Under the pieces are notes generated by a model, which saw nothing but the letters and a program-made list of their open reading frames with translations, did no database searches and was not told the origin of the DNA. DNA of 63,187 nucleotides, the filler included, from Jimgerdemannia flammicorona (lineage: Eukaryota): the NCBI GenBank assembly GCA_003990765.1. It is 3 parts of 3 records of this genome, joined end to end, with 100 filler letters (N's around TTAATTAATTAA, not from the genome) between each part and the next. Parts side by side here need not be neighbours in the genome. Positions count along the whole stretch, not along the records: positions 21,119 to 42,108 come from RBNJ01001550.1; 2 more parts are not named here. The stretch is one strand, 5' to 3'. This document shows, piece by piece, positions 9,307-53,739 of this stretch. The translations under genes and the position numbers were made by a program. How positions within the stretch are numbered: the first letter of the stretch is position 1; each line of letters opens with the position of its first letter.

Positions 9307-9345
9307 TCAGCCCCCACTGAAGGGTAGTCTGCCTCAGACTATTCT

Positions 9346-9855: not shown

Positions 9856-9869
9856 GGTATGAGAAGTAT

Positions 9870-12734: not shown

Positions 12735-13125
12735 GTCTGAACTTCCAAATCCCTCAGCTTGTCTTGTTCCTTCAGTTAGTTCAGAGACTTCCTGTAACTG
12801 TGGAGTCTTGACTTTCATGAAGACTGCTTGGGCAATCTTCTGTCCTCTAATGATTTGGTGCCATTCTGCACTGCTGTTGTATAGGATGATCTTGATTTCG
12901 CCTATATATCCAGGGTCAATGGTTTCTCCTTCTATAGTTATCCCTTGTCTGGCAAGTCCGGACCTTGAGGTCAGTTGAATATAAGCTCCTTAAGGTGGCT
13001 GCATGGCTAATCTGGTTCTGACCATGAAGGTTTTTCCAGGCTTGATAGATTCATCCTCCAGGCTGTGAAGATCATATCCTACATCCTCTGGGTGGGCTTT
13101 GGTCAGGGGTTTGGCCTTGGGGTGT
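12735..13125 (-). pseudogene. dut: dUTPase domain of element B (between protease and RT)
   Basis: KAHPEDVGYDL, SRSGLA, IDPGYIGEI, KIAQAV and TRQAEGFGSS motifs. Confidence 0.92.
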
Positions 13126-16100
13126 AGCAGGGCATACTGGGCAATGTCCTTGCTGAGTTCGGGCTTTCCTAAGGCTGAAGCTCCACTGGCGGAAAGCCTC
13201 CAAGCTCTAAGGTTGAGGTGTGGCCATCTGGCTCCAGTAGAGGGGTCTCAGAGGTAATTGATTCCCCTCCTTCCTATAGGGTCAAGGGCCTCTATGAAGT
13301 TGGTGGCATCTTCTGCCCATCCTTGGTGGGTTATATGTCTGATGAGAGCTAGGATATCTTCTCCCAAATCATAGATCTTGAGAATTCTTTTTCCAGGCTT
13401 CTTGGTCTGACTTTTTTGAATCTGACTTTTTCAGATCTGGCTTCAGTTATCTCCTTTCTTCAAGGTATGCACTGCAACATCATGACTGAGGTGAATCTTC
13501 TGATGTCTGTAGTCTCAGCAGTCAGGGTGTCTTCCATGGTTGCAATATCCCATTGCTCGGAAATGATGTTCCCGACTATTTATCTCTTGTTGTCTTGGGA
13601 ATCGGTACCCATCTTAATCATAGGTTGGGGGAAGGGTAGACAAGGGGTATATTTCTGTTCAGGTAAAGAAGCCTTGTCCTCTAAATTGACTTTGTAACCT
13701 TGTAGTGACTTCTTGGAAGGTGGTAGACTGTACAAGAGTAGTTGGGGGATCTGGTCTCTGGGGTCTCTGTCTTTCCTGTTGGTCCAACAGATGGCACTGA
13801 TAGTAGTAGTCTTGGGGAGAGTGGAAGACCATTTGATGTGAATATCTTCCTAGCCAAAAAGCTTTTTCTTGGTGGGTTTCTTTCTTGGGGATAATGGTGA
13901 TGGTGCTGAGTCCTTCCTCTGTATTCCAGGGGTCATTGCCTTCAGGTGGTGTCCACCAAGGGTTATCCCAGGGGATGAGTTCGGAGACTTCTTCTTCATC
14001 AGGTGCTTCTTGTTCAGGAACTTCTTGGTCAGAAGTTTCTTCTTCCTCGGATGATTCTTGACCCCAAATTGCTTGTACTTCTGCAGCTTTGGTCACAGGT
14101 GTTTCTAGAACATGTCTGTATTTCTTTTTCTTTCTTCTACATTCTGGACAGGCTGCACCAGGCGATTTCCTTGTTCCCATTATCTTGGAGGAGTGCTTGG
14201 GACACTTGTGTCTCTTGAGGTATGTGGGGCATCCTTTGGCTTCTCCTACAATGGCTCCAATGGCGATGGGGATGGTGTTCTTAGCCCACACATTGTCTTC
14301 TGGTCTGTCATCCACCAGGTTAATTTGTGGATTGAGTCTGGGATCATTTCCATCTTTGGATTCTTCTTCTTCTTCTGTAGTAGACTCCTCACTGCTGGCA
14401 TATTCTTCTTGAATGGTGACCTTCTTCTTCTTCTTTGATTACTCATAGCTGGTCACCTTAACTCTATACTTCTTGCCTCAGTAGTCAAACTTGAGTACTT
14501 GTTGGCCAATATCAATGACTGTATTCATTTCCTTCATCCAGTTGGTGCCAAGAATCATGTCATAGGTGACAGCTTCGGTGACAACAGCTTTGGGGATAGA
14601 GAACTGAATGTGTCTAAGGGAGATGGTGATATTTCATACTTCTCCAAGGGGTTGAGTTTGGGCTCCATCTGCTACTATGATGCTGAGGTTGGATGGTCCA
14701 TCAATGGGCCATTGGAGGGTGTCCAGGAATCATTTGGCAATGACACAGACAGCTGCTCCTGTGTCTATGAGGATTTTTGCTTTTTGTCCTCTGATATCTC
14801 CATGTAGGTAGGTGCTGACATGTTTTTCAGCTGCTTGAACAGGAATAGGAGCTGGTTCTTGCTGTGGGATTGGAACTTGGCCAGTGCTAGACCTTGTGGT
14901 TCTCAGTAATTTGTTTCGAACTCCAGCTGGTGTCAATTGCAAGAACTGCAGGAGAGGAACTTCCATCTTGGCTTCTTGAATCTTCTGCCAGGCTTCATTG
15001 TAAATATCCCTAGGCATGGTCTTTGGGGTGTACTTCTTCTTAGACTTTGGAGCAGCAGGTTCCCATTCTTCTTGTTCCATTTCTTCATCTTCTGGTGGCA
15101 ACTCATTTGTCTCAGGCACAAAAGGTGAGGGAGTTCGGGGAGGTGTTTCAACTTGTTCCTCCTCATGTTCCTCATCTTCTTCTTGAATGATTCTTCTGCT
15201 GATATTCCTGGATGGTCTTCCCACAGGTCTCTTTCTTTTTTCTGCTGGGTAGACTGTCTTTTAAGTGGTAACCTTGGTAGGGTACAAGTCTAGGTCACTA
15301 TAGTCTTCACTGTTGCTTGCTTCCTCAAAATCTTCAACAGGATGGGCTTCAGTCTTCTTGTACTGGGTGTCATTCCTTCGGTTTGGTGGTTCTGAGTCCC
15401 TTCGGTCACTTCTTTTGTTGCCACATTCAGTGGCATAGTGTCTGAATTATCCACAGTGGAAGCATTGGACTTGGGCTCTGTCTCGGGCAGAGTACCTTCT
15501 TTCTTCTTGCTGGTAATTCCTGTTATCTCTTGGTGGATAACCTTGGCTCCTCTGTGGTGGGTACCCTCTGTTGTTTTGGTAGTCCTGATTTTCGTGTATG
15601 GTGAGTTTTTCAATCTGTCCAACCAATCGGTCTAACTTGGAGCTGAGGTCTTGAATTTCGCTTCTATCCTTCTTTCCTTCCTTGGCTGGCCTTCTTTCTT
15701 CAGACCTTTCTTGTCCTTGAAGGAGTCCTTACAGGGCTTTGACCAGGATATCTTCTTTATCTTCCTTCTTGTCATGGTCACTCCAGGTAGTTCCTTGCCT
15801 GACATCGAAGAATCCTTGGGCTGCATCTACTTGCTCTTCAGACCTTCTGATGCCTAGGGTGCGGACATGCTGGGCAATATTCGGAGGAATCTCATTCATG
15901 AAGCTCATTGGACCTATGATGTCTTGGTTGGTGGCATTGAACCCGGCAGAATGCATTTTGTTCTAGATTCTTGTGAAGAAGGCTCTGGGTGATTCTCTAA
16001 GATTCATCTTCATTCCCATGATGGATTCCTGAGCCTTGTGGCAGGTTTCATTTCCTGCATACTTTTTTATGAGCCAGTAGACCATGGCCTGATATTCTAG

Positions 16101-16860
16101 CTCATAGGAGACTGCTGCTTGTATCTGTCTTGCTAGTTCGGAATCTGGGTTGTTTGCTGTTCAATGGAAAATCCCTCTGGCTGGTTCTCTGAGCTGAGCT
16201 TTGTAGATGGTGATTTTCCTTTTGTCTGAGAGATTCCTCAAGGCTGCGATTCCTTCAATTCCATCAAGGAATTCTCTGGGGTCTTCCTCTGGGTATCCTG
16301 CAAAGATTGGCAATGAGGTGGCCATTTCTTTGTCACTTTCTTCTGATTCTGGTTTGAATTCGGATTCTGATTCTGATTTACTTTCTGAACTGTCACTAGA
16401 GACCAGGGTGCTTGGGTATCTTGAAGATGGTGTTCTGGTCCTTAGATGAGATGGAGTAGGCCTAGGTATCCTTGTAGGAACTACTTCTGGTTCTGCAAGA
16501 GGTTGTGGTAGGGGTTCTATTGGTGAAATTGGTGGGACTGGTGTGGGGTATCTGGCTGTAAGGTGTTGGGTCCAGGTAATAAAGTCTTCTAGTTCTTGTG
16601 CAAGTTCTCCAAAATCTCCAGCAGGGCTGCCTGTATTGTCTGGTTGATCTGGTTGATCTGGCTGAGGATTTCAGGCTGTACTGCCTCCTGCTTCTGGTTG
16701 AGATTCTTCTGATGCTGGATAGTTGGCAAGTCTTGAGGTAATTACTTCTCTTCCAGTCCAGATGCTAGTGATGACTGGTTCTCCTGTAGTAGCAGAGGTT
16801 GGTGTTATATCAAATGTATCCAGTTTGACTGTGGGTTCTTGTGAGCTGAAAAGTCATGTT
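13126..16860 (-). pseudogene. gag: gag-protease region of element B, plus a long insert
   Basis: Capsid-like LPIFAGYPEEDPREFL (~16300). CFHCG*FRHYATEC knuckle ~15425-15465. Protease AKILIDTGAAVCVI ~14740-14785. Gag reads into protease in one frame apart from point stops. Confidence 0.88.
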
Positions 16861-16874
16861 GATTTTGAAATCGT

Positions 16875-16892
16875 TTCCCAGTTGAGCCCCCA
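16875..16892 (-). promoter_or_regulatory. Primer binding site of element B (tRNA-Pro-like)
   Basis: TGGGGGCTCAACTGGGAA 2 nt inside the 5' LTR resembles the tRNA-Pro PBS TGGGGGCTCGTCCGGGAT. Confidence 0.7.
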
Positions 16893-16894
16893 AA

Positions 16895-18308
16895 TGTAAC
16901 ATGCCAGCTCAATAGAGGCAAATTATAAGGTTGGGGGTTGATGTAGTTTGGCTTGAGCCCCCAGTTACTTTGTCAAAAAGCAACAAAATGTTCTAAGATT
17001 CCGGAGGTCCTTGGTGTTTAGTGGTATAATAGTCAAAGCTGGATATCTGCGAGCGATTTCCTTATTCGGACTGTTCTCTGGATGTAGCAGTGATTTGTGT
17101 GTGAATGGACTTCCTTCTTGGGTCAACTGGGAATGGCACAATTTCTGTGTAGTGTGACGATCTCCTTGTGTGTGACGGTCTGGCAATTTAGCAGTTCTCC
17201 TTCTTGGGTGATGGTCTCTGATTTCTGTGTGACAATCTCTTATGTAGCACGGCGATCTCCAAAAGTATGCGACTTCTAGCAGATGACTCGATTTGGCTCG
17301 CTGGGAATTGTATGGTGCTGATTCTTCTGTAGCAGGCTTCACTGGGAATAATAGATAACTCAGATGGCTCTTCTGGGAATGCGAATAACTTGAAAATGGC
17401 AAATGATGCGGATTCTTCCTGAATCGGCGGGCTTCTCGGAAAACTGGGAATTAACTTGGATGGATGGCGCAGATTCGGCTTCAACTGGGAATATGGTGGA
17501 TAACTCGAAAATGGCAGGTGACGCGGATTCTTCCTGAATCGGTGGGCTCTAACTGGGAAGTGGGATGGCGGCTTGGAAAGGGTCTCTTGGTAAAGTTATG
17601 TCAAAGACTGGCTTTGTTTGCACAGGGTTGCATTGTAGACTGGCTCCACTGTGAAGTTGTGTCAGAAACTGGCTTGAGTAAAGGCAGCTTTCTCTTAGGT
17701 GGAAATCTTCAGGCTTATCTGGCAAGTGAACCAAAAATGTAGCAGCTTATTCCTTAAGCAGCAGATTACTCTTCAAAAGGGCAGCGAAGTTCTTCTTGAA
17801 CTTGGGTGGCAAATCTTCAGGCTTATCTGGCAAGTGAACCAATAGTTCCAAAGGCAGCGAAGTTCTTCCTCGAACTTGGCAGCAAAATCAGCTTTATATC
17901 GGAAAGTAGACCGGAGTGGAAAGGGGACCAATGCTCAATCTTTAGAGGCTTGTTTGGTATTTGTATTTCGGACTGAGGTTTTATTCACTCTCGCCTCTGG
18001 GGTAATTTATACAAGTTGGTTGCTATCTGGTTACTATGTGGCTAACTATAGATTTGCTATCTTTGGTAATGTTTGGGTGTGTCCTCTGGGTACAGGTGTG
18101 TCCACAGGATATGAGTGTGTCCGCAGGACATGAGTGTGTCCTCAGGACACAGGTAAACAATCCTGATCTGGTGTCTTGGCTAATTATAAGTGTGGCGGGC
18201 ATGAGTAACTATGATACACTGGAAGTCACATCATGCTGAGTAAGTATGCTAATTATTCGCATCATCTGGCTAAGTTATAATTCGAGTGGTACATTTTGGT
18301 CTGTTACA
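16895..18308 (-). repeat. 5' LTR of element B
   Basis: TGTAAC...GTTACA termini. Homologous to 7758-9306 with several indels in the repeat arrays. Confidence 0.95.
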
Positions 18309-20611
18309 ATATTCTGAAGATAGGAAATAATCTCTTCTTCATAAGTAAAATGATGAATTATGGCAACAAAGAGATATATACACATTCAAAGATACAATAT
18401 TATATAATTTGCATGACAATAAGAGATTAATAACAGTCTTGAAATGTGGTAATCTTTATATATTCAATAATATATCAAGTAGTGTAAAAGCCACTACATA
18501 TATGATAACTATGCCTGATGCATCCAATATGTGGTATCAACACTTAGAACATATTGACAAAATGAGTCTCAAATGGGTAATATGAAATAGATCCATCAGA
18601 GAATTACTGGCAGTACATCTATATAATAGTTTCTGTGAGGATTATATAGTAAACAAAGCATCTCAGCAATCATTCAAAGAATGAATAAAGTACATATCCA
18701 GGATTCTTGATCTTATATATATGGATATATATGGACTGATGCTTATATAATCACATTTTGATAAGAGATATTTTCTCACATTTATCAATAATTATTTGTA
18801 TAAAGTATATATATACCTTCTATTAGTGAAGAGTGAAGCTTTGGATAAATTTAAATAATTTAAAGTAATAGCTGAGAATGAGACAGGATATAGAACATAT
18901 ATATATATATATGTATATATATATTTTTTTTTTTTTTTTTCTAACAGACTCATAGTCCTGCAGATTTTTATTAGAAGAGAACCTAGACTATATAGGCCAA
19001 AACCCTCTTCCACCACCCATTGAATAATATCCCCCTATTAACCTAAACTACTAAACTGTCCAGCAGTTCCACTGCTCCAGCTATACCTGTCAAACACTAG
19101 CTATATTGACCCCCATGACATAGACTGGACTTGTCTGCTCACCAGGGCTAGATCATCATTTACACATGAGAGCACACCTATGCATCAGATCTAGTAGTAC
19201 CAGGACTGAATAAAGAAGAGCCCCAAACCTCAAAAGAAAGCCCAAGACAAAGAAAAACCCCCCAACCAATCAATAGAGAGCAAAGCAGATTCAAAGTGGG
19301 TAAGTAAAGAACTTATACACAGAACCTTCCACAAAGGACTTACAGATGGGCTAGGGTCAGAAAAGACCCCACTTCCACTCCTTGAGCCTGTGGACCTCAA
19401 TTATATTTCTGTATCAGCTCCTGGTTCCAGTTAGGTACAGCTAAATAAGGAAGGTCCCACTCCCCAAGCCGGTGTGCCTTGATCATATTGCAACATTAGC
19501 TCCTGGTTCCAGTTGGGTATAGCCAGGATACCAGCCCCTACACCACCCCACCCCCCACTGGCCAATCAAAAGGCCCAACCAAAATATTGTTTGCCCCAGC
19601 CCCAATGATGGCCCTCAGCCTGGCACCCCACTGGTTCACCATTATCACTCTTCCTCCTATATCTCCTCTCCCATCCCAACAACATCTGAAAAACAATCAC
19701 CTATGCCAGAACCATGCTTGCTGGGAAGCTTGCCAAAGCCAGAGGGCCACACCACAGGTACTGAGGACCAGCAGGTAACCTACACTGGGCACTTGACACC
19801 CAAGGTCAGCTGACTTCCTATATAACCCATGATATACTGAGACAATACCTTAGTGGTAATGACAAAAGGAAGAAAGCACCATACCAAAACAGGTATACCT
19901 CAGATGCAGCTAAAGGCACCAGAATCTGTGAAAAAGTGAAGAAGACACTGATCTGATACTGATAAAGGGGTAACTCATCACCATTGCCCTCCTCCCACCA
20001 TGCTCATGCAGGTACAGCAAACCAACCCAAGGTAGAGGGGGTAATAATAGGGGAAAGGAGACTCAGAAGGTCATCTACCAAATCTTATGACCAGTAAGGT
20101 AGTGGAGAAAGGGGCCAAGGATATAGAATATATACTATATGATCAGATAATAAACACAAATATATCAATCATACATTTAAGCAGTTTCTGATAAAACATG
20201 GTATAACCTTTTAAATAATGGCTCTCTATATGTCTCAGCAGAATGGTGTGGTCAAGTAATTTAACTATATGGTCATAGAAATAGTTTATATGATGATCAA
20301 TACTGTTGAACTATCATATTCTTATTGGGTCATAGTGATATATACTATAGTGTATATATATGTATAATTAGTGCATATCTCAATTGCTAAGCAACAATGC
20401 TAGCAACAATGACAAGCATTCCAGGACAATGATCTTATCTCTGAAGAATTATGGAGTAAATTCAAGTCTGATGTATCCCATCTATGAATATTCAGTTGCA
20501 AGGCTTATGTCTTTAATAAAAGTAATACTATTAGAGATTAATTTGAACCTAAGACAAGTAAGCATATCTTTTTTGAGTATTTCAATAAGACATACCAGCT
20601 ATGGGATCTAT
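18309..20611 (+). mobile_element. Ty1/copia relic (pre-integrase and integrase), interrupted by a retroposon
   Basis: Decayed copia motifs: NNLFFISKM, MWYQHLEHI, FCED.IV.K, LDLIYMDIYG, KRYFLTFINNY, ENETGYRI|YTI*SDN across the insertion, and SQQNGVV. Confidence 0.85.
18901..20117 (-). mobile_element. Non-autonomous retroposon (SINE-like), copy 2, complete
   Basis: poly(A) plus (TA)n tail at 18901-18940. 16-bp TSD AGGATATAGAAYATAT at 18885-18900 and 20118-20133. Removing the element restores the copia integrase frame. Confidence 0.88.
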
Positions 20612-21118: not shown

Positions 21119-24100
21119 CCCCTTCCCGATGAAAGACCACTTTGTCTAACACCATCGCCACCCTCCCCCCACTCTGCTCACAGATCTTTACTACCAAGCT
21201 GCGCCTTTGACCCTCCTGAGGACCCCAACCCACCCACCATCCAGTCAGCAGATCCCCCAACAGCCCCTCCCATCTTAACACCTTCTTCTGCAGCCCCAAC
21301 CGCTGCCCCTCCTCAAATACAAAGAGCCAATGTCCTGCCAGACCCACCCATACTGCTAATACCCACCCTACAGTGAGCCACTGATTGTCAACACCCCCCA
21401 CAAGTCTAGATTCTAAATCTTCCCAGCGACCTCTCTCCCCATCTGGTCTCCTTTCAACCCCCAGCCGGTCTCCAATAGCTATCCAAAAGTCCCCCAGCAC
21501 CTCACATTCCCCCAGCCAATGTTCCGGCATTTGTACAAATCCCCCAGCCTGCCCAATGTCATAACACTCCTCACAATCCAGCTGACCACCATCCATCAGA
21601 TGCCCAGAGCAGAAGTTCAACATAACATTCCTCCACAACATCCACCACCACACTACCCAGAATTTGAGAGGAAGCCATTGCTGCACCTTGGTACTCCAAG
21701 ACCAGATCCCTGCCCAATCCCACTCCTCACCAATCCTCACCACTTGCCAACTGCTCAGCCAAAGATCCTGGCCCATTCGCCACTGACACTCCACTCCATC
21801 TCCAATGTCAAACTCAGTGAGCGGAACTCCCCCTAGAAGCAGACAGTCCTATCTCTACATAGCCGGACCCCATGCCACCTCTCCCTCATTACCACGCCAG
21901 TGCAAGCCTATCCGGTGCACTCCATTGACCACTCCCCACCAGAAGCCCTTATACCGTAACCATCAGCTTCCATTCAGATCCACCAAAGAGAGTAGATCAC
22001 CTGAGGACCCCCGGGGGGAGACTACCTTCTTCATCAACGGTACCCAACCCCCACCCTGTAGCTCGACAGTCCTTCTCAACTACCAAGCTCGCAAGTAGTG
22101 TAGGTGCTTAGGGAAATCAACAAGGCCCAGGCCTCCTCTAAGCACTGGCTCGACAAGGGTATCCCAACTGATCTGGGCCCTTCTACCCGCCCAAATCCAA
22201 TTCCTAGCCAGTTTCTTCAACCACTTCACCACCCAAGCAGGAAGGTCCAAGTAATACGCCACATACCACAGCTTGGGGAACCAATATACATTCAGAATCA
22301 CCACCCGCCCAGCCAGGGAGATGTGATGACCCCCCCAACTTTTCAGAGCCTCCCCCCAAATGTCCACCCTCCCCTCCCACCATGCCCATGGCAGGACTGA
22401 ACCATATACAGAGAGGAAGATACCTAGATACTGCACCACCTCTCCCTTGGGGACAATTGTTCCAATGACGTCCCCTCCCACCAGCCCATTCCCCAGCACC
22501 ATCATCTTACACTTATGCCAGTTGAGCTTTGCCCCAGAGTATGTCTCATACCACTCTACTGTTTCCCGAAGAGCCTCGACATCCACTACTGATCCAAGTC
22601 CAACTACCATGTCATCTGCAAAGGCCCCCACCTTCCACTCCACATCATATACAGAGAGTCCAGCCACCCTCCTACGGATCCTATCCATCAAAGGTTCCAA
22701 AGAGAGTGCATAAAGAATAGGAGACAGCAGGTCCCCTTGAGGGACTCCTCTCCCCAAGAGAAATGCCAAACCCCTGTGACCATTACACATCAGTGCTGCT
22801 CTACTCCCTTCCAACAAACTCAACATAGAGGCCCAAAACTGTGGCGGAACCCAAATTCTGTCCAGCACCTTGCCCAGCCAAACCCGCCGAACCCAGTCAT
22901 AGGCCTTCTCCTGGTCCAGAAAAACCAGTCTACCATCCAATCCACAGGCCTGGGCTCCCTCAATAATGCCATATACCCAGGCGGTACCATCTCTGATAAG
23001 TCTACCTCCTACAAAGCCCCGCTGCTCCTCACCTAATACCTATTGAGCAACCTTCTGTAGCCTTGCAACAATCACCTTAGTCACCAACTTCCGATCCATG
23101 TTCAGAAGCATGATTGACCTCCAGTTCTTCCAATCCTCTCGCCTGCCCTTTTCTTTGTACAATAGGGCCACCAGCCCTAAGTCCTGCTCTCCAACCCACA
23201 TGCCATTTAGAAGAACGTAGTCACAGAGAGCAGCCATCTCTCCCAGCATTCCAGGGACTTTCACTATCTTCTTCCAGAAGTCCCACAGTAACCCATCCTC
23301 CTCTGGAGCTGTCCCAAGCTTAGTTGCTGCCAGGACTCCTTGGACCTCCTCCTCTTGGACTGGTAAGATCAAGTCCCCTAGACCTTCTACCAGTGGCAGC
23401 TCCCACTCCTCCAGTGTGTCCCCAATCGCCTCTGCATCAGTACCCCCTTCCTCCTCACTCCACAGACCTCGCCAATTCTCCTTCAATACTCCCAGGATCT
23501 GCTGCATACCATGTACCAACTCCCCCTCAGCATCCAAAACTCCATCCCACCAGTGTCTCACCCACCTGGCTTTGAGGAGCCTAGACAAGTACCTAGTAGG
23601 CCACTCCCCCTCCTCAAGCTCCTGCCATCTTAGCCTGGCTACCATTCCTCGCATATGAGTCTCCTCCTTCTCTCTCAACACCTGTTGCAGTTCCACAACT
23701 TCCAATTTCGCCCTTTCCAATCTCCAGTCCTCCACCCCATCGGACATAAGCAAATCTGCCCACTCCAACTGCAATCCCTTCAGCCGATTGGAAGCAAACT
23801 ATATTCTCCTCCTCCTCTGTCTCCCAGCCTCTCTCCCAGCTCCACCCTAATAGACCCTCGCAGCCTCTTTCAATCTCATCCAATGGACACCCACAGACAA
23901 ACCCTCCTGCCTCCAGAGCAGAACCTTTGTCTGGATGTCCTCCACCCATGGATCCCACAACTTCTTCTCATCCAGCAGGGAGGAGTTAAGACACCAATGT
24001 CTGGGTCCGTCACCACTCCCCCCAAACTGCCCCTGCCCAAACAGTTCCCAGTGATCAGACCATGGGCACTACACCACCTCCAGAGACTTCCAAACATCAG

Positions 24101-24731
24101 CGCCCCAGCATTCAGCTGTCAGTACCCAGTCAATCCTTGTTCCCAGACTATTCACCCAGTGTGTATAGACCCTGGAGTCGCCCCACCATGTTCGGCCCAT
24201 ATCCCCTAAGGAGCTAAGGTTTCCCACCTCCTCCCATGCATCTAGACTGCCACTCCTCCCCCCAGCATTCCTCCCTCCATCAGTTCTATCCAGCTGCAGA
24301 TCCCGAACCATGTTAAAATCACCACCAAGAACATTGACCCCTTCCTTCAAGAGAATGCCCTCCTCTAGTAATTCCTTAATTTATGCAATCCTCTCTCCCC
24401 TCGCTGCCAGGCAGTAGCAAGAGCCCACCCTCACTGAGTCCCACCCTGGCCGGTGCCATTTACCCCAGACCAAGCAATCTCCCCAGCTCTTGATTCCCTC
24501 CAAATCTCCTCTTCCCTTCTTTACCAGAATCGCCACCTTTCCAAACCAAGTGGTAGCCCCACCCCATTCCGTAGTCCATTCTACCCTATCATCCTCATCC
24601 TCGCACTGTACATCCTGCAGTAAAAAGAGATAAGCCTCCAATCCCTTTAGCCAAGTAAAAATGTTCTTATGCCGCCCCTTTCCCCGAAGTCCATTCACAT
24701 TGAGAGAGAGAATGTTAGTTGTACTGTTCAT
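21119..24731 (-). pseudogene. LINE ORF2 (APE endonuclease-RT-CCHC)
   Basis: ILSLNVNGL, LLQD, LGGDFN, RIDW, WRSIMLLNMDRKL, FLDQEKAYD, GVPQGDLLSP, FADD, YLGI, and CEEC...EHWLGEC. Several stops. Confidence 0.93.
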
Positions 24732-24762
24732 TAGAAATAATGTTAAAGATAAAACCTCTCCT

Positions 24763-26697
24763 CTACAAATCCTCATGCAAGCCCTCCTGTGCCAAATCCA
24801 AGATATGTTCCACAGTCAGTTCCTTCTTCTCAGCTTTCTGAGCCTCCAACCCTTCTAGAAGTGCAACCATAGCCCCATCCTCTTTCTCCTCAAAGTCCTC
24901 CCGATACTCCCCACAGGCCTCCTGCCAGAACTGCAAACCATGGCGTTCTGCCCAACAGTAGGCTGCCCGCTCGCCTGCAACAACCACCAACTCCGCCTTC
25001 CTCACCTCATCCACCTCATAACCCTCTTCTTCTAGTAAGATCACAAGAATCTCCCCCTTCAGTGCCCCCTCCACTCCATTACCTCGCAGAAGCTGTGCCC
25101 AGTACGCCTCTGGCATGGCCCTCAGATCCACTTCCCCCAACGCCTCTGCTGCAAGGTTATCCATCACCTTGCTCATTCACAGCAGATTCCCAATCTCCTT
25201 CCCACCAGGGGTCCCTGGTCGCCCTGCATCCAACATCGTAGTATCAGCACCTATACTGGCATCCTCATTCCACTCCTCTTCCGGGACATCCACCAGCTCA
25301 TCCTCACCAACTGCCACCACCTGGCCCCCTTTCGCCACATCCAGGACTCCAAAAGTAACTCTCTGGGCCCCCTGCATCAGTATGTCTTCTTCTGCTCCTC
25401 ACCGCCCCACCAGGCCCCTCCTGACAAGTGGGTGGGGGGTACTATCTGACTCCTTCTCCCAAACCTCGAAAGTACCATCTGCATAGGGATCCTTGCCCAG
25501 CACCTTCACCGCCCATTCTTCCATCACTACTGCCTCCTTTCCTCCTTCATTAGCCCATACACTGGCTTTGACACCTCCAGACTCCTCGGCCCTAACCACC
25601 TTCCTCTTCTCCCCTCCTGTCATACTCGCCAAGAGCTCCCTCTGCCTCAAGTGCCCCTGGGCCCACTCCCACTGCTTCTTGTCAGTGCGGATATGCTTCC
25701 CATCCACAATCTCCAGGTGCGTCGACTCCTCATAGAGCTTCCAGGCCTTTGCCCGCCATTCCACTGCACCACTCATCTCCTCCAAAGCTTCCAACAGATC
25801 CTCCTCCTCCTCCTCACTCCCCTTCACCCTTGATACCTTACAGATAAATGCCCCCCACATCAGCACTGAGGGCCAATCACCTGTCTTCCCTGTGGCCTCC
25901 CTCCCTGCCAGCCGAATCCTGACATCAATATCGCCTGTCCTAATCATCGTCCCCTCCCATACTTGGAAGCCAACATCTACCACATCCCCATACTCTGCCA
26001 TCATCTCCTCTACCCTCCTCCTCGTCTCCTCCTTCGTCACTGTGGGCACCCCCTTCACCAGCAGCTGTACCACCCTGAGATCCCATCTCAAACAGCGCAC
26101 CATAGGGACCACCACCTCTCCAACTGCCACCCCAGCCCTCAGTGCCTCCTCCAGTGGGCCCACCTCCTTAAAGCCCACCTCGACTCCCTCCAGACCCTTC
26201 AGGAACTTTACCAAAGCCGCCCCAGCCACCTGCTTCGAGATAAGCCCCAAGACCATTCTTGCCATCACCCCTAAGCCTCGGAAGCACAGTGTCACCACAA
26301 ACTCCGAAATCGACTTCTTGAGTAACGGTGCCACTGCCAGCCCTGTCACACTATTGGCCAGGTCCCCCTTCTTCATCAGGAACCCCTGTCCCACTCCCCC
26401 ATCAGCCGTCACATCTCTTTTTTTTTCCTGATCCCCCATTACACCCCCATCAACAGTCATACCCCCAGCCACAGCACCACCAGCCCCTATGCTCGCTGCT
26501 CCCCTCTGAGGGCCACTCCCCCTTCTGACACTAGCCTTGCCCTTCCCTTCAGCAGCACCAGCCCTTGGCCCAGCAGGCCATCCACCTGCCTTCACCTTGT
26601 CAGCAAAGCTGGAAGGACCAGCTCTTCCTCCAGAACCACCAGACACCAGTCTGTCTCCAGAGCCTTCTCCCACCTTCGACCCTCCAAAGGCTCCCAT
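24763..26697 (-). pseudogene. LINE ORF1
   Basis: Long frame (ORFs 25399-26898, 25177-25377, 24763-25176) upstream of ORF2, with RRM-like LLVKGVP...MAEYGDVVDV. Conserved in copy 2. Start codon uncertain. Confidence 0.8.
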
Positions 26698-27254
26698 CCC
26701 CAGGCCATAACCCCTCCCCACCTTCTGCCAGCTGAAAGCCCCAGCTTCCCCCAACCCAGTATGCCTGTTGGAACTCTTGCTCGATGATATATTGATAGTA
26801 CCTTTTCTCCTGGTTGTGTCGAAATCCGTTGCTTGAAGTTTTTGTGTAATGCGAATTGTATAGGAGAAAGGTGACATCAGAAGATTCACCTTAGTCATGA
26901 TGTTGCAGTATACACCCTGAAGAAAGGAGATAACTGAAGCCAGATCTGAAAAAGTCAGATTCGAAAATACCAGACCAAAAAGCCTGGAAAAAGAATCCTC
27001 AAGATCTATGATCTGGGAGAAGACATCCTAGCTCTCATCAGACATGCAACCTGCCAAGGATGGGCAGAAGATGCCACCAACTTCATGGAAGCCCTTGACC
27101 CTACAGTAAAGAGGGGAATTAATTACCTCCGAGACCCCTCTACTGGAGCCAGATGGCCACACCTCAACCTTAGAGCTTGGAGGCTTTTCACTAGTAGAGC
27201 TTCAGCCTTAGGAAAGCCTGAACTCAGCAAGGACATTGCTCAGTATGTCCTGCT

Positions 27255-27645
27255 GCACCCCAAGGCCAAACCCCTGACCAAAGCCCACCCAGAGGATACA
27301 GGATATGATCTTCACAGCCTGGAGGATGAATCTATTAAGCCTGGAAAAACCTTCATGGTCAGAACCGGATTAGCCATCAGCCACCTCAAGGAGCTTATAT
27401 TCAACTGACCTCAAGGTCCGGACTTGCCAGATAAGGGATAACTGTAGAAGGAGGAACCATTGACCCTGGATATACAGGCGAAATCAAGGTCATCCTATAC
27501 AACAGCAGTGCAGAATGGCACTAAATCATTAGAGGACAGAAGATTGCCCAAGCAGTCTTCATGAAGGTCAAGACCCCACAGTTACAGGAAGTCCCTGAAC
27601 TAACCAAGGGAACAAGACAAGCCAAGGGATTTGGAAGTTCAGACA
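27255..27645 (+). pseudogene. dut: dUTPase domain of element C
   Basis: KAHPEDTGYDL, SRSGLA, GGTIDPGYTGEI, KIAQAV, TRQAKGFGSS. One frameshift near 27380. Confidence 0.92.
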
Positions 27646-27991
27646 GAAAAGAGGTACATCTCCTTTAAGTCAACTACCTCAAGAGGAATGTTCCCCAGCA
27701 AGTGTATCAGCAACCAGTTAGACTACACAAGAATCTCATCCTGGAGCCCAGAGAACAAACTACCTTTGAAATCTTTGTACCACCCAACCCCAGAAATCTT
27801 TTCTTTGAACCTAAGGAAGATATCCCACACCTAGACATAGAGAGACACACATTCTCTGATAAGATGAATCCAGTACACTCCTGAGCAACCAACCAAAGTT
27901 GGGAGACCATCATCTTGCTGAAAGGAACTATCATAGGACATCTGATGCCTTTTCTCAACCGAACTCATAGGGAAGTTTATGAACTAAACCT

Positions 27992-29464
27992 ATTGGGAAA
28001 TGGCAAAAGGTCCCAGAAGAAAGGAAAGGCCCCTCTGCGACCCAGGAGACAGTGAAGCCTTCCACCAACATTGGAGAAGAATTGACACCTCAACAACAGC
28101 AACAACTAATAGAACTTCTCAACAAATATCAAGATATCTTCACCACCGATTATGGCAACCTACCATGTAACCCATCATATCACCACAGCATAAATACAGA
28201 AAATGCAACACCCATCTGACAGAAACCCTATAGAATATCCCATCACTTAAAAATATTTGAAAAAGAGCACATACAAGAACTTTTAGACAATGGAGTCATC
28301 CAACCCTCTACCAGCCCCTGGGCCAGCCCTATACTTATTGTACCAAAGAAAGGAGGATGGAGACTCTGTGTGGATTACAGAAAACTCAACTCAGTCACTG
28401 AGAAGAATGCTTATCCTTTGCCCAGAATCGATGACCTTTTGGACCAGTTACAAGATGCCAGATACTTCAGCAGTATGGACCTCTTCACAGGATTCCATGA
28501 GATCCCCATGGACCCCAAGGACATTCAAAAGACAGCCTTCCTTGCTCTAGGAAAACTGTTTGAATACCTCCGAATACTCTTTGGACTCTGCAATACACCC
28601 CCCACCTTTCAGAGGATGATGAATTCGGTCTATACTCCCTTGATCCACCACTGTCTGATTGTATACATGGACGATTCCAACATCTATTCAGCAAATTTCG
28701 AAGAACACCTGCACCACTTAGAGGAATTCTTCAAGCTCACCTGCAAGAATCACTTGAGATTGAATGCAAAGAAATGCTACTTTGGAAAACAGAAACTTGA
28801 ATTCTTAGGATTCATGGTTTCAAAGGAAGGAACTCATACAGACCCAAAGAAAACTGAGAAGATCAACAATTGGCTGGTATCCAAGACTCCAAAGGAAACA
28901 CTATCATTCTTGATGCTAGTATCCTACTACAGAAGGTTTATCAAAGATTTTGCCCAAATTGCTGCCCCAATCTGAATCCTTCTCAAGAAAGAAGTGCCAT
29001 TCAAATGGACAGAATCACAAGGAAAAGCCTTCAGAGAACTCAAGAACTGCATGACTACAGCACCAATCCTTGTGCGCCCCAATCAGAAGCCATTCATCTT
29101 GTATACAGATGCTTCCAAAGATAGCCTAGGAGCAGTTCTAGCTCAAGAAGGACCTGACCAACAGTACCATATGATAGCTTATGCAAGCAGAGCTACCAAT
29201 CAGCAGCAAATGAACTATGGTAGCACCAAACTGGAATGTCTTGCAGTCATATGGGCAGTCACCCTGTTTAAGCATTACCTCATCAGAAAAAGGTTCACCT
29301 TGATCACAGACCATGTAGCCCTCAAATGGCTATTCAACTGCAAGGAACCAGCTGGAATCCTAGCCCACTGGATCCTTATCCTTCAGGATTACAAAATCAC
29401 CATTATTTACAAAGCAGGGAAAGCCTACAACAATGTTGATGTACTTTCCCACCAGCCCCAATGA
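27992..29464 (+). pseudogene. pol: RT-RNase H of element C
   Basis: ORFs 28370-28975 (YMDD) and 28994-29464 (YTDAS, LECLAV, ITDH) lie in one frame. Confidence 0.95.
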
Positions 29465-30520
29465 ACCAGAAGAAGGGTGTCCCAAGGAACTACACTCTAA
29501 AGGAAGCTCCTCAGACCATCAAAGCACAAGAAGATCTTATCTGTAAAGAACATCAGAAGGCTCATCAAGGACAGATAAGTACAGAAGACAAGATTCGAAA
29601 ACTGTATCAACACTGGCCTCACCTCAGAACTCAAGTCCGAGACATCATCCAGAAATGTGACACTTGCCAGAAGTATCAAGGAAAGAAAAACTACCAAGCC
29701 CCTTTGCAACCGATTCCCCTACCCACTCACATCTTTCAGAGATGGAGAGTAGACATAATTGGACCCCTACCAGTTACACCAAGAAGAAACAAATACATCC
29801 TTGTATTTGTAGAACATCTGACCAAGTGGTCTGAGGCTTTCCCAATGGAAATCGCAGATGCCTTAACCATTGTGGGCCTCCTCCATAGACTCACACTCAG
29901 ATATGGACCCCCAGAAGAACTCATCTCTGACCAAGGCACAGAATTCATCAACAACATAATCACAAGTTATGTCTGAATTCACAAGATCCACCTCAAATGG
30001 ACCACATCATACCACCCTCAGACCAATGGCATGATAGAAAGGATGAACCAGACCATCAAGAAAGGACTTGCCTGAGTCAATCCTACCAATTAGGACCTCT
30101 GCTTACCTGAGATCCGATGGGAAATTCGGAACACCCCTGCCACATCCACTAAACAAAAGCCATTTGAAATGATGTTTGCTAAGAGAACAAGAACTGCTGA
30201 CTATGAGAATCTTAGAGACCTCCTCAAGAAGGCAGAACAGCTATGTAATCAAGCCCAAGGACAGATTATCAAAGCTCAGGAAAGACAAAAGAAGTATTAT
30301 AACCAAAAACGGAAGGATCAGGAGATCAAGATTGAAGATCAAGTCCTAGTTTGGAGAAGCATAATTGAGACAAACTTTGCCACCAAACTAGAACCGAAAT
30401 GGAAAGGACCTTATCTTGTACACAATATCAGAGGAATCAGTATCTACTTAAGAAGTATGGATGGATGAACCCTGAGAACACCAGTACATATCAATCGCCT
30501 CAAAATATATTTCCCCTCTG
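29461..30520 (+). pseudogene. Integrase of element C (ATG overlaps the RNase H stop)
   Basis: ORFs 29461-29976 and 30169-30468: HHCC, VDIIGP, ISDQG, KWKGPY. Confidence 0.92.
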
Positions 30521-30524
30521 CACC

Positions 30525-31040
30525 ATGAGCCAAAGGATTGATCAGTGCCTCCAGACATTGGTCCTCAGTTCCTTCCAAGCCCTACCAGTCCCTCTACCCC
30601 AATTCGGCCAAGCCAATGGAAGCCCCCTCCAGAGAATCCAAGTTTATCAAGAAAATCTCATCCTGGTCAGATGCCTACTACAAGTCCACCAACTGCAGGC
30701 CTATTATGCAATCAGTGAACAATTGCAGAACCTCCCAGCCCCAGAACAGACCTATATCAGGAACACCACAGGTCTGACCAGAAGAGACATTACTGCAGCA
30801 GACAGACTATACACCATTTACAAATGAAATATCACAGCTCTGACACAGGCACAATTCTCCCTGAATGATATTCAAGGAATGAACCCTGTTACCTATCTGA
30901 GCATCATCAACTCTGTCAAAATCCTGTTCTCTGAAGAAGAAGAAGAGCCCATAGAATGGAGTGACTCCAGTATAGACAATAAAGATGATGGAACAGGTAT
31001 AGATGCAGAAGTAGCCTATGCTTATTGGGATGATGACTGA
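30525..31040 (+). pseudogene. ORF-X of element C (172 codons incl. stop, one internal TGA)
   Basis: MSQRIDQCLQTLVLSSFQALPVPLPQF...HQLQAYYAISEQL...AADRLYTIYK*NITAL...EEEEEPIEW...AYWDDD. Confidence 0.92.
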
Positions 31041-31079
31041 AGAATAGTCTGGGACAGACTACTCTTCAGTGGGGGCTAA

Positions 31080-32551
31080 TGTGACAAACCAAAACATACC
31101 ACTCAAATTATATCTTAACCAGATGACGTGAACAATTAGACAAGATGACGTAAACACACAGTATAGTAACCAGCAACTATTGCTGTAGAAAAACTATATA
31201 AATAGCCAGACATACCAGAAAGGATCTGTTTACCTGTACAGACTCTGTACACCATACAGACTCTGTATACTGTACAGGTCCTGTACACTGTACAGACTCT
31301 GTACACCTGCCATAAGTAGCAGATCTATAGTTAGCCACATAGTAACCAGATAGCAACCAACTTGTATAAATTACCCCAGAGACAAGAGTGAATAAACCTC
31401 AGTCTGAATTGAAGTGCAAACTAAAGAAGTCTCTAAAGATTGAGCATTGGTCCCCTTATTCCACTCTGGTCCACTTTCTGATACAAAGCTGAAGATTTGC
31501 CACCAAGTTCAAGGAAGAACTTCACCGCCTTTGGAATTATTGTTATTGGTTCGCTTGCCAGATAAGTCTGAAGATTTCCACCTTTTCCGCCTTTTATGCC
31601 ACCTAAGAGAAAGCTGCCTTGCTCAAGCCAGTTTCTGATACAACTTCGCAGTGGAGCCAGTCTACGACGTAACTCTGGGCAAACGAAGCTAGTCTTTGAT
31701 GTAACTTTGCCAAGAGACCCTTTCTAAGCTGCCATCCCATTTCCCAGTTAGAGCCTGCTGATTCAGGAAGAATCCGCATCACCTGCCATTTTTGAGTTAT
31801 CCACTGTATTCCCAGTTGAAACCGATTCAGGAAGAGTCTGCACCATCCAAGTTAATTCCCAGTTAAGCCACCATTTTCAAGAAACCTGCCAAATCTACAT
31901 CATCTGCCATTTACGAGTTATCCGCCACATTCCCAGAAGAACCCCGCCAATTCAGGAAGAATTTGCATCATCCGAGTTACCTGAGTTATCTGAGTTATTG
32001 AATTATCTGAGTTATTGAATTATCCGAGTTATTCGTCATTCTCAGTAAGCCCGAGAAGAATCCGCCACCAGCATTATTCCCAGTTATTTGAATTATCCAC
32101 ATCATCCGAGCTATTATTCCCAGTAAGGAGAACCCACACCTTACATTCCCAGTGAGCCAAATCGAGCCATTCACCAGAAATCACATACTTTTAGAGATTG
32201 TCATACTACATAGAGATCATCATACAGAAATTGTATAAGGAGAACTGCTAAATTGCCAGACCATCACCCAGAAATCACATACTTTTGGAAATTGCCTTGC
32301 TATACAAAATTGTGGCATTCCCAGTTGACCCAAGAAGGAAAAGACATATACATCGCCACTACACCCAGAGAACCGTCCCAATAAAGAAACCACTCACAGA
32401 TATCCAGCTTTGACTATTATACCACTAAACACCAAAGGACCTCAGAAATCTTAGAACATTTTGTTGCTTTTGACAAAGTAACTGGGGGCTCAAGCCAAAC
32501 TACATAAACCCCCAACCTTGTAATTTGCCTCTATTGAGCCGGCATGTTACA
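31080..32551 (+). repeat. 3' LTR of element C
   Basis: TGTGACA...TGTTACA. R/U5 is homologous to the B LTRs, while the U3 segment ~31140-31315 differs. Confidence 0.93.
31234..31306. repeat. 18-bp palindromic tandem array (CTGTACAGACTCTGTACA) x4 in U3 of element C
   Basis: Read directly. It occupies the same position (after TGTTTACCTGT) as the GGACA array in B. Confidence 0.9.
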
Positions 32552-45754: not shown

Positions 45755-48700
45755 CATCACCTTTCTTCTGTATAATTCACATTACACAAAACTTCAAGCA
45801 ATAGTTTTCAATATAACTTGGAGAAAAGATACTATAAAAATATCATCAAGCAAGAGTTCTGAAGGATATGCTGGGTTGGGTGGATCTGGGGCTTTCAGCT
45901 GATAGCATGTGAAGAGAGGTTATGGATTGGAGATGGGGGCTTTTGGAGGGTCGAAGGGTGGCAAAGGCTCTGGAGGAGAAATAGTGTCAGGTGGATCTAG
46001 GGGAAAGCCTGGTCCCTCCAGCTTTGCCAATAAGGTGAAGGTGAGTAGATGGCCTGCTGGAACCAGGGCTGGTACTGCTGAGGGGAAGGACAAGACTAGC
46101 ATTGGGAGGGAGAGTGGCCCTCAGGTGAGAGATGTGAGCATAGGGGCTGGAGGGGCTGTGGCTGAGGGTGTAACTATTGATAGGAGTGTAACAGAGAATC
46201 AGAAAAAAAAAAGAGATATGATGGCTGATAGCCAGGTGGGGCAGGGGTTCTCAATACGGAAGGGGGACCTAGCAGATAGTGTAATGGGACTGGTAGTAGC
46301 CCTATTGCTCAAGAAGTCAATCTCAGAGTTTGCAGCTACCTTGTACTTTTGGGGCTTGGTAGTGATGGCAAGAATAGTCCTGGGGCTTATTTTGAAGCAG
46401 GTGGCTAGGGCAGTCTTGGTGAAGTTCCTGAAGGGTCTGGAGGGAGTTGAGGTGGGCTTTGAGAAAGCAGACCCACTGGACAAGGCCCTGAAGACTGAAG
46501 TAGTGGTTGGGGAAGTGGTGGTCTCCATAGTATAGTGCTTGAGGTGGGACCCCAGGGTGGTGTAGCTTCTGGTAAGAGGGGTGCCTATAGTGACAAAGGA
46601 GGAGACTAGAAGGAGGGTGGAGGAGGTGATGGCAGAGTATAGTGATGTAGTAGATATTGGCTTCCAGATGTGGGAGGGGACAATATTCAGGACAGGTGAT
46701 GTCAATATCAGGATTTAGCTGGCAGGGAAGGAGGCCACAGGGAAGATGAGTGACTGGCCCTTGGTACTAATGTGGGGGGCTTTTGTCTGTAAGATATCAA
46801 GGGTGAAAGGGAGTGATGAGGAGAAGGAGGACTTATTGGAGACTCTAGAGGAGTTGAGTGGTACTATGGAGAGGAGGGTGAAAGTCTGAAAGCTGTATGA
46901 AGAGTCAACATATCTGAAGGTCATGGATGAGAAATGTATCCATACTGATAGGAGGCAGTGGGAGCAGGCTCAGGGGTACAAGAGGTAGAGGGAGTTTTTG
47001 GCAAGTATGAAAGGAGAGATGAAGAAGAAGTTGGTTGAAGCTGAGGAGGCTAGAGGCATTGAAGCTAGTGTCTGGGCTAGCAAAGGAGGAGAGGAGGTGG
47101 AGGCAAATGTGGAAGGGACTGAGAAGGCACTGGGCAAGGATTCCTATGCTGACAGTACCTTCAAAGTTTGGGAGTAGGAGTTGGATGGTACTCTCCCCCC
47201 TACTTATCAGGAGGGGCCCAGTTGGGAAGAGAGGAGCAGTGGAGGATATACTGATGCAGGGGGCCCAGCAAGTTCACTTTGGGGTCCCAGATGTGGTGAA
47301 AGGGGGTCAGGTGGTAGTGGTTAGTAAGGATGAGCTGGTGGATGTCTCAGAGGAGGAGTGGGATGAGGCTGCCAGTGTGGGAGCAGATATCACAATGCTG
47401 GATACAGGGTAGCCAGAGACTCCTAGAGGGAGGAAGGTGGAGAACTTGCTGTGGATGAGCAAGGTGATGGATAATCTTACAGTTGAGAAGTTGGGAGAAG
47501 TTGACTTACATGTGATGCCAGAGGAGTATTGGGCATGGATTCTGTATGGGGATGGGATGATAGAGGTGTTGAAGGTAGAGATACTTGTGATTTTTAAGAA
47601 GAAGGAGAGATATGTGGTAATGAGGTGAGGGAGGCTGAGTTGGTGATCGTTACTGGTGAGTGGGCTGCCTATTGTTGGATAGAGCATTATGGGTTGCAAC
47701 TCTGGCAGAAGGCATGCTTAGAATACCAGAAGGACTTCAAAGAAAAGGAGAATGGGGTGATGGTGGAACTTCTGACTGGGTTAGAGGCAAAGACAACTGA
47801 AGAGAAGATACTGGCTGCAGAATATGACTTAGACTTAGTACAGGAGGAGCTGGATGCAGATTTGTAGAGAGTATGATTGATAACCAATATTATTCCTTAT
47901 GAACAGTATAACTAGCATTTTTTCTCTGAATATGAATGGGCTATAGAGATTGGGGTGGCATAGGAACATTTTTACTTAGCTTAAGAGATTGGGGGCTGAT
48001 CTCTTTTTACTGCAGGATGTACAGTATGAGGATGAGGAAGATCAAGTAGAGTGGACTAGAGAATGAGGAGGGGCTACTGCTTGGAATGGCAAAGTGGCAA
48101 TTCTGGTGAGGAAGGATAGAGGGGACTTGGGTGGAATTCAGAGCTGGGAGGACCATTTGGTATGGGGAGATTGACACTGACCTGGGTGGGAATCAGTGAG
48201 GGTTGGCTCCTGCTACTGCCCTGCAGTTAGGGGTGAGCAGATTGAGTAGATTAGGGATCTGTTGAAGGAAGGTGTTTTCTTGGAGGAAGGTGTCAATATT
48301 TTGGGAGGTGACTTCAACATAGTACAGAATCCACAGCTGGATAGAACTGATAGAAGAAGGAGTGCAGGTGGGAGGAGTAGTGGACTGGATAAGTGGAAGG
48401 AGGTAGAGAACCTTAGCTCTTTAGGGGATATGGGCAGAACACTGTAGGGTGACAGGAGGGTCTATTCACACTGGGTAAATGGACTGGGTACAAGGATTGA
48501 CTGGATTCTGACAGCCAAATATTGGGGTGCTGATGTTTGGAGGACTCTGGAGGTAGAGTGGTGCCCTTGGTCTGATCACTGGGGGCTATTGGGGCAGAGA
48601 CAGTTTGAGGAGAGTGGAGATAGACCTGGACATTAGTGTCTTAACTCCTCCCTGCTGGCTGAGAAAGGGTTGTGAGACTCATGGGTAGAGGATGTCCAAG

Positions 48701-53679: not shown

Positions 53680-53739
53680 ACTTGGTGCCCATTGGCTAGT
53701 AATTCAAGACAAATTCCTCACTTTCAAGCTGAAAAATAA

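Follow-up and report, generated by a model that had tools for sequence, protein, structure and literature searches.

Do the accessory gene and the promoter repeats of a retrotransposon evolve as one unit, or do they vary separately on a common element? The question is raised by a 63,187-nt stretch of DNA from Jimgerdemannia flammicorona (GCA_003990765.1; the whole stretch is hereafter called the window), which carries two copies, B and C, of one long terminal repeat (LTR) retrotransposon. Each copy has a short open reading frame (ORF), ORF-X, downstream of pol, and a tandem array of short palindromes in the U3 part of its LTRs. A reading of the window made from the sequence alone (the sequence-only reading) had claimed that ORF-X and the array diverged together while pol stayed nearly identical, and that the two form a swappable module made of a protein and its operator. 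By comparing B with C, and both with related metagenome sequences, we found that the two copies are mosaics, with old variants at two separate places of a recently shared backbone.

Results

Two divergent patches on a common backbone

Element B (7758–18308, minus strand) is a full-length, decayed LTR retrotransposon, delimited by self-BLAST and by reading of its LTR ends. Element C (26873–32551, plus strand) is a 5′-truncated member of the same family, as identified by self-BLAST, alignment and Pfam. B (minus) aligns to C (plus) over C positions 26873–31139, and then again from 31310. Differences were counted by region in a global alignment of C 26873–32551 with B, and positions are those of C unless stated otherwise. 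In pol (26873–30505), 280 transitions and 16 transversions are found in 3633 bp (0.44% transversions), so that the two copies differ mainly by C/T and G/A transitions, as the sequence-only reading had stated. Its description of pol as nearly identical is correct once these transitions are set aside, but not for the raw identity, which is about 92%. Between the two LTRs of B itself, which were identical at insertion, 1354 aligned bases now show 108 transitions and 13 transversions. Because transition density is equal between these LTRs (8.0%) and between the pol genes of B and C (7.7%), the pol differences are explained by transition-dominated decay after insertion. By this measure, B and C were almost identical in pol and in most of the LTR when they inserted.

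Two places stand out from this background. Patch 1 (30506–30989; B ~9397–9873), which corresponds to ORF-X codons 1–155, contains 43 transversions in 484 bp (8.9%) and 80 transitions. Patch 2 (31140–31310; B 9026–9247 and 18066–18249), located in U3, contains 21 transversions in 171 bp (12.3%), 15 transitions and many indels, and no BLAST match extends across it. In both patches, transversions exceed those of pol (Fisher test, p = 3.5e-28 for patch 1 and p = 1e-19 for patch 2). Hence, the comparison of B with C by region agrees with the claim that the region of ORF-X and the U3 array is divergent and that pol is not. The joint divergence that had been described holds insofar as two places have diverged; it does not form one block, since an island (30990–31139) with 2 transversions in 150 bp (1.3%) and 23 transitions lies between them. 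The island differs in transversions from patch 1 (p = 0.0008) and not from pol (p = 0.16). Downstream of patch 2, 8 transversions and 21 transitions are counted in the 290 bp of 31311–31600, and 17 transversions and 89 transitions in the remaining 951 bp of the LTR (31601–32551). The upstream edge of patch 1 is sharp: the final pol transversion is at 30246, and the next 43 all fall within 484 bp from 30516. The patch opens no more than ~20 bp from the ORF-X start and stops where a conserved acidic tail (DDGTGID...) begins.

The age of the patches can be read from transversions at third codon positions, which we used as they are hardly affected by transition decay. Between B and C, they amount to 6/459 in pol and 23/149 in ORF-X codons 1–155, a 12-fold contrast (p = 2.7e-10). 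A partial outgroup is given by L001, a metagenome contig that carries the end of pol followed by a distant ORF-X (~50% identity, two in-frame stops) reaching the contig end; it was the one ORF-X locus in 345 candidate stretches of our metagenome scan. Between C and L001, the contrast is 1.6-fold (59/461 in pol, 28/140 in ORF-X; p = 0.04). These figures bear on the explanation that no recombination took place and that ORF-X and the U3 part just evolve faster, through relaxed constraint or local hypermutation. At the protein level, the rate of ORF-X is indeed about threefold that of pol, with a nonsynonymous rate (dN) between C and L001 of 0.32 vs 0.08–0.12. However, silent third-position transversions should be neutral to such a difference, and their excess is about 12-fold in one pair and 1.6-fold in the other. 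In addition, the edge of patch 1 is abrupt, and a ratio of nonsynonymous to synonymous rates (dN/dS) of 0.12 between B and C excludes relaxed constraint. A mere difference in rate is thus extremely unlikely in our view.

Therefore, the change from a 12-fold to a 1.6-fold silent contrast reflects different ancestry rather than a faster rate. From these counts, the ORF-X alleles of B and C parted almost as long ago as L001 branched off, while their pol genes are recent relatives. Old ORF-X alleles on recently related pol genes make B and C mosaics, and the claim of a swappable part is borne out in that the divergent parts, whose ancestry is unlike that of pol in the L001 comparison, were exchanged by recombination. 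In the acidic tail, third-position transversions amount to 1/16 between B and C and to 7/15 between C and L001 (p = 0.015), and the island probably shares the recent history of pol. The patches thus appear as two cassettes rather than one, as they are separated by sequence with that recent history; because this recently shared island stands between them, they can be uncoupled.

U3 palindromic arrays

The arrays follow (T)GTTTACCTGT, located at 31227–31237 in C, and consist of a 19-bp palindromic unit in B and an 18-bp unit in C, as had been read from the sequence. The C-type array (31235–31307, plus) has four units of TGTACAG-N3-CTGTACA, counted as 4.0 copies over 31236–31307. The B-type array has 4.8 units in the 3′ LTR (9056–9147, minus) and 2.8 units in the 5′ LTR (18096–18149, minus); its unit is GGACA-N6-TGTCC, or TGTCC-N3-GGACA in the other register. 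Each array type is specific to its element, neither motif occurring in the other one. In the window, TGTACAG-N3-CTGTACA has three exact matches, all in the C array, and four matches with at most two mismatches vs 0.24 expected, while 6 of the 8 matches to GGACA-N6-TGTCC with at most one mismatch are in the two arrays of B (1.36 expected). A derivation of the arrays from the CAGAC-containing inverted repeat by the polypurine tract was considered and rejected, the likeness in B being due to decayed units, as seen from its 5′ LTR.

The C-type array lies 58–130 bp upstream of a TATAAAT box (31365–31371, plus). Similarity between B and C resumes at ~31308–31313, ahead of ATCTATAGTTAGCC at 31323–31336, in line with the sequence-only reading. 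Identity among the three LTRs goes back to ~55 bp before the TATA box and is almost complete from ~31310, and the promoter-proximal U3 (31323–31400, plus) is near-identical in the two LTRs of B and in C. Upstream, at the 5′ end of U3, two AGATGACGTRAAC boxes (31121–31133 and 31143–31155) share a TGACGT core, which we take to be of the cyclic-AMP response element (CRE)/bZIP type. One metagenome contig has an extra copy of the AGATGACGTRAAC box inserted behind 31120.

Tandem palindromes in an LTR may also act as nucleic-acid structure, that is as RNA hairpins or DNA cruciforms serving RNA stability, 3′-end processing, packaging or strand transfer. When folded as RNA, the arrays are far more stable than 200 shuffled controls, with z = −4.6 for C and −3.3 and −3.3 for the two arrays of B (0, 1 and 0 of the 200 shuffles folded as well), and the arm bases change in a compensating manner between array types, as expected for a selected helix. 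On the other hand, any tandem palindrome folds well, so that the z-scores do not discriminate. Promoter elements typically lie just ahead of the TATA box, as these arrays do, and the change from 2.8 to 4.8 units between the LTRs of a single element resembles that of enhancer repeats. A structural role is therefore quite improbable as the explanation of the arrays, which we rather see as promoter modules.

ORF-X, a small orphan gene family

ORF-X of C (30525–31040, plus) comprises 171 codons and a stop, with one in-frame TGA (30825–30827). That of B (9855–9346, minus) comprises 169 codons and a stop; its start reads ATA, two TAG codons interrupt the frame, and each of the two other frames contains several stops. 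These are the two ORF-X copies that tblastn finds in the window. The start ATG overlaps the pol stop codon (ATGA, 30525–30528), and the overlap is retained in C and in L001. Between B and C, dN/dS calculated by the Nei–Gojobori method is 0.12 in the ORF-X frame, vs 0.84 and 1.41 in control frames, and the transversions are distributed as 12/7/24 over codon positions 1/2/3 (chi-square p = 0.005). The codon pairs cited in the sequence-only reading (ACA/ACT, TTG/CTT, GCC/GCA) are visible in the alignment. Together with the existence of intact relatives, these values confirm that ORF-X is under purifying selection and, judged in this way, ORF-X is a real gene.

A word-indexed protein search gave six relatives at E <= 0.01 among 77 candidates, and cluster look-ups added more. 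Intact proteins of 170–172 residues from metagenome protein collections (P0001, P0002, P0008, P0010) are 75–78% identical to ORF-X of C. An exhaustive search of 1.84 billion representative proteins yielded six matches at E <= 0.001, of which five are real, all of them unnamed. The 3161-residue protein P0014 was discarded as a relative, being a Thr/Pro-rich repeat protein with a compositional match. In total, at least five ORF-X lineages at 69–82% identity were distinguished, plus a distant group. No relative was found among 585 candidate stretches of viral contigs or 89 candidate stretches of genome contigs, and no longer or fused form among 1108 candidates.

The two ORF-X copies of the window match no Pfam family at E <= 1. 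With 12 aligned members and a threshold of E <= 10, three weak families appeared, none of them DNA-binding: LST1 in two members (best E = 0.056), and Endo_dU and Peptidase_C21 in one member each. Sequences of the PDB gave nothing below E = 0.2, with two hits at E ~0.2. Two AlphaFold models are all-helical and of low confidence, with predicted local distance difference test (pLDDT) scores of 52 and 46. With the better one, Foldseek returned 395 matches at E <= 10 and none at E <= 0.001, and the neighbours in the Atlas are unrelated helical proteins with template-modelling (TM) scores below 0.45, which is uninformative. A long helix is predicted at residues 34–68. Residues 79–101, which are basic, form the most conserved part of the protein and include a small hypervariable spot at 88–90. 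The tail is strongly acidic and contains Trp and Tyr; presumably, it resembles an activation domain. No hydrophobic run that could form a transmembrane stretch is seen in the alignment. A programmed −1 frameshift joining integrase to ORF-X was also considered; it was rejected as the T_TTC_CCC heptamer of C is conserved neither in L001 nor in B. A non-exhaustive literature search retrieved no description of ORF-X. By all these comparisons, ORF-X is a small, hitherto undescribed orphan family.

Cassette variation beyond the window

Soil metagenomes and sequencing data of one organism contain small portions of the stretch; no RNA run is among the sequencing runs listed as carrying it. In addition, a 20-base word of the promoter has no match in viral contigs or genome contigs. 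Contigs of four public runs were placed on 30300–31500 at 80% likeness, and the following observations concern the 32 pieces listed, to which 365 further pieces add. The C-type array is present in at least two soil runs (X5 record 22, covering 31190–31404 with six differences, and X2 record 16). A third array type, GCACA-N2-TGTGC, appears in loose ends just before 31308 in X1 (at least one contig) and X6 (at least two). In the window, this motif has no exact match and a single match with one mismatch, vs 0.81 expected. Joints lead from 31191–31211 straight to 31308–31310, and a loose end of B-like sequence attaches at 30921. The depth of contigs rises to a peak at the island and is highest at the promoter-proximal U3. 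These observations indicate that both patches are variable cassettes across the whole family.

The recurrence of the joints is relevant to a local origin of the mosaic. B and C are close, inverted neighbours whose near ends (18308 and 26873) lie ~8.6 kb apart. They might have been distinct subfamilies throughout, made alike in pol and in most of the LTR by ectopic gene conversion between them once inserted; as a conversion tract stops at a drop in homology, the most divergent patches would be left untouched. However, the same junctions, at 30921 and at 31191–31211/31308–31310, as well as another array ending at 31308, occur in unrelated soil contigs, so the cassette boundaries belong to the family rather than to the locus. 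Moreover, conversion would have to predate all of the ~8% transition decay. We consider this origin very unlikely.

Since the family holds at least three types of array and at least five lineages of ORF-X, two copies taken at random would differ at both patches even if these assorted freely. Therefore, the joint divergence of the patches in B and C needs no functional coupling; because several alleles circulate at each patch, one pair carries no linkage information. Among the pieces listed, none covers more than 485 bp of the stretch and none spans from ORF-X codons 1–155 to the array. X5 has the C-type array and no cover over 30505–30668, whereas X6 has a C-like ORF-X piece (30651–30807) and the third array type, with the C-type array lacking cover; neither was used as evidence.

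Element architecture

The remnant of C pol (27390–30528, plus) contains dUTPase, RVT_1, RT_RNaseH, integrase zinc-binding and core domains and a KWKGPY module. Its frame is interrupted by stops, and its terminal TGA overlaps the ORF-X ATG (ATGA). RVT_1 is located at 28220–28975, RT_RNaseH at 28976–29464, and Integrase_H2C2 and rve at 29440–29976. The dUTPase (PF00692, E = 5e-17) lies upstream of RVT_1 in both B and C. Pfam detects no protease domain, so that the dUTPase is placed relative to the reverse transcriptase only. No chromodomain follows the KWKGPY module of integrase in C pol. Given the order of reverse transcriptase, RNase H and integrase, the KWKGPY module without chromodomain and the dUTPase, B and C are copies of one dUTPase-bearing Ty3/gypsy LTR retrotransposon. 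On its 5′ side, C is cut at the border with a LINE-like element (26873/26874).

The LTRs of B, delimited by self-BLAST, are at 7758–9306 (3′ LTR, minus) and 16895–18308 (5′ LTR, minus), and the 3′ LTR of C (31080–32551, plus) measures 1472 bp. They are of the TG...CA type: the 5′ LTR of B and the LTR of C start with TGT, the 3′ LTR of B starts with TAT, and all three end with ACA. The G-rich tract AGTGGGGGC ends 3 bp ahead of the LTR in B and C alike. Changes within the LTR pair of B fall mostly at CpG (37, with just 34 CpG left in the 5′ LTR) and at CpA/TpG (47). This spectrum suggests that repeats decay in this host through a process linked to cytosine methylation or similar to repeat-induced point mutation (RIP). 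In the R/U5 part of the C LTR, positions 31963–32033 hold the tandem repeat ATCCGAGTTATTGAATT, with a unit of 17 bp (also 9 bp), and indels around it account for most of the length difference among the three LTRs.

The conserved island (30990–31139, plus) comprises the acidic tail of ORF-X, its stop codon (31038–31040), an inverted repeat, the G-rich polypurine tract (31068–31076, plus), the LTR start and the first GATGACGT box. The inverted repeat pairs 31037–31051 with 31055–31069 (plus; B ~9317–9349). With 15 bp and one mismatch, it is present in both B and C and runs from the ORF-X stop codon to inside the polypurine tract.

Other elements of the window

The window consists nearly entirely of nested transposons within AT-rich DNA (24–28% GC). 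A pair of LINE-like, non-LTR elements (21119–26874, minus, and 45757–51508, plus) is 78% identical over 5.8 kb at 48–54% GC, and carries RVT_1 and a weak endonuclease/exonuclease/phosphatase match. A second, more distant dUTPase LTR element (52209–60820) has its dUTPase at 55854–56591, its reverse transcriptase at ~56580–57300, and LTRs at 52209–53662 and 59403–60820 that are 84–90% identical. It was rejected as a third comparator since tblastn finds no ORF-X relative in it, and the region from its integrase to its 3′ LTR contains no open frame of at least 60 codons. Another element, at 3670–5617, bears a reverse transcriptase 37% identical to that of C, and a further repeat pair (602–1162 and 19562–20110) shows 81% identity.

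Discussion

The comparison of B and C speaks for two cassettes rather than one. The explanation that we regard as probable, with some reserve, is that anciently diverged cassettes were brought onto a common backbone by recombination, the U3 segments being exchangeable modules and ORF-X an accessory gene. B and C would have inserted with almost identical backbones that already carried two old cassettes, one spanning the N-terminal 155 codons of ORF-X and the other a U3 segment of ~170 bp that contains the palindromic array. The mosaic may have arisen where conserved sequence on either side of the patches allowed homologous recombination; the likely route is that reverse transcription switched templates between RNAs of different subfamilies packaged together. 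The arrays would be interchangeable modules with an enhancer or upstream-activating role, to which a putative dimeric factor binds, most simply a host transcription factor. ORF-X would be an accessory protein of ~171 residues, predicted to be all-helical with an acidic, aromatic C-terminal tail. Its translation after pol could rely on the ATGA stop/start overlap or use a subgenomic RNA, and the protein would act by contacts with other proteins.

Several points weigh against this explanation. The third-position transversion rate in the acidic tail (1/16) is not significantly below that of patch 1 (p = 0.27), and the 150 bp of the island, on which its recent shared history is judged, contain the polypurine tract and the end of the LTR, both likely to be constrained. 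The comparison involves two decayed elements and one partial outgroup, L001. Furthermore, palindromy is kept while the arms read GGACA, GTACA or GCACA, which points to a dimeric, sequence-specific binder of shifting specificity; such a binder would fit a conserved host factor less easily than a variable, element-encoded one. Finally, ORF-X and the array are exactly the two deeply polymorphic patches of the element.

These last observations lead back to the module of the sequence-only reading. Spelled out, ORF-X would be a sequence-specific, probably dimeric DNA-binding regulator (activator or anti-silencer) of its own LTR and the U3 palindromes its operators, the two co-evolving and moving together. 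The arrays are tandem inverted repeats at promoter distance from the TATA box, each motif is confined to its own element, and palindromy persists in three array types despite the changed arms. On the protein side, the predicted helix 34–68 could dimerise, the acidic Trp/Tyr tail would be available for activation, the hypervariable spot 88–90 sits inside the most conserved basic stretch, and no patch other than ORF-X and the array is deeply divergent. However, Pfam, PDB sequences and Foldseek reveal no DNA-binding family or fold for ORF-X, the structure models are of low confidence, and the differing spacers of the array types (N3/N6, N3 and N2) are awkward for one conserved dimer fold. The dN/dS of 0.12 comes without a sign of diversifying selection, the recently shared island makes uncoupling possible, and with n = 2 and several alleles per patch, co-divergence is uninformative on linkage. 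Such a module is neither supported nor refuted by these observations, and we consider it unlikely. By analogy with known systems, ORF-X alleles and operator types might form matched pairs on a common backbone, giving co-resident subfamilies private promoters that do not cross-react; we hold this to be equally doubtful. Exchangeable cassettes with an accessory ORF-X remain our preferred explanation.

Known systems illustrate each part of this picture. The closest parallel for the U3 cassette is given by the Tnt1, Retrolyc1 and Retrosol elements of Solanaceae (Ty1/copia), in which coding regions are conserved and subfamilies differ chiefly in U3 upstream of the TATA box, a pattern interpreted as modular evolution of promoter specificity (PMC1838419). 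As in Tnt1, B and C have a common backbone and a different U3 (0.44% transversions in pol vs 12.3% at 31140–31310), and a third U3 type exists. In contrast to B and C, the Tnt1 group belongs to another superfamily and to plant hosts, and no extra gene is reported to vary beside U3. The U3 boxes of Tnt1A are tandemly repeated, like the units of B and C; the latter differ in being inverted repeats of 18–19 bp. The arrays thus add a new case of exchangeable U3 promoter modules.

For the pairing of a protein with short noncoding motifs, the model, as named in the sequence-only reading, is VANC. In Arabidopsis VANDAL elements, a transposon protein and short tandem noncoding motifs both differ sharply between related elements; VANDALs are Mutator-like DNA transposons, and binding by VANC and hypomethylation were demonstrated experimentally (PMC5735166). 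ORF-X differs in that it belongs to an LTR retrotransposon, and shows neither homology to VANC nor a recognisable DNA-binding domain. Unlike the VANC motifs, the repeats of B and C are palindromic, promoter-proximal and located in the LTR. A second model is foamy-virus Tas, the product of a retroelement gene downstream of pol that activates its own LTR (PMC13220597). As would fit a transactivator of the Tas/Tax type, ORF-X lies 3′ of pol, has an acidic tail and is accompanied by U3 repeats; a DNA-binding fold or homology was not found, and Pfam, representative-protein and PDB-sequence searches gave no similarity to Tas. Tas carries an acidic C-terminal activation domain. It belongs to complex retroviruses of vertebrates, is encoded after env and has an internal promoter, unlike ORF-X. 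VANC and Tas are models of a possible mode of action rather than families that contain the B/C element. Our non-exhaustive literature search retrieved no case, outside retroviruses, of an LTR retrotransposon encoding a protein that regulates its own LTR. If the cassettes were linked and ORF-X bound the arrays, the element would encode an allele-specific transcription switch outside complex retroviruses.

By its architecture, the element is closest to the dUTPase-bearing Ty3/gypsy elements with a family-specific ORF3, namely Juno, Vesta and TelKA of bdelloids and elements of basidiomycetes, whose ORF3 types include env-like, GDSL esterase, DEDDy exonuclease, transmembrane and coiled-coil proteins (PMC5408684). 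With these elements, it shares a dUTPase upstream of the reverse transcriptase, a GPY/F module that no chromodomain follows, and an additional ORF downstream of pol, ahead of the 3′ LTR. By Pfam, ORF-X matches none of the types described there (env, GDSL, DEDDy, transmembrane), and it overlaps the pol stop as ATGA. ORF-X therefore adds a new ORF3 family to the few accessory genes of dUTPase-bearing gypsy elements. Overall, B and C provide a clean case of cassette-wise evolution in an LTR retrotransposon, with old alleles at just two places.

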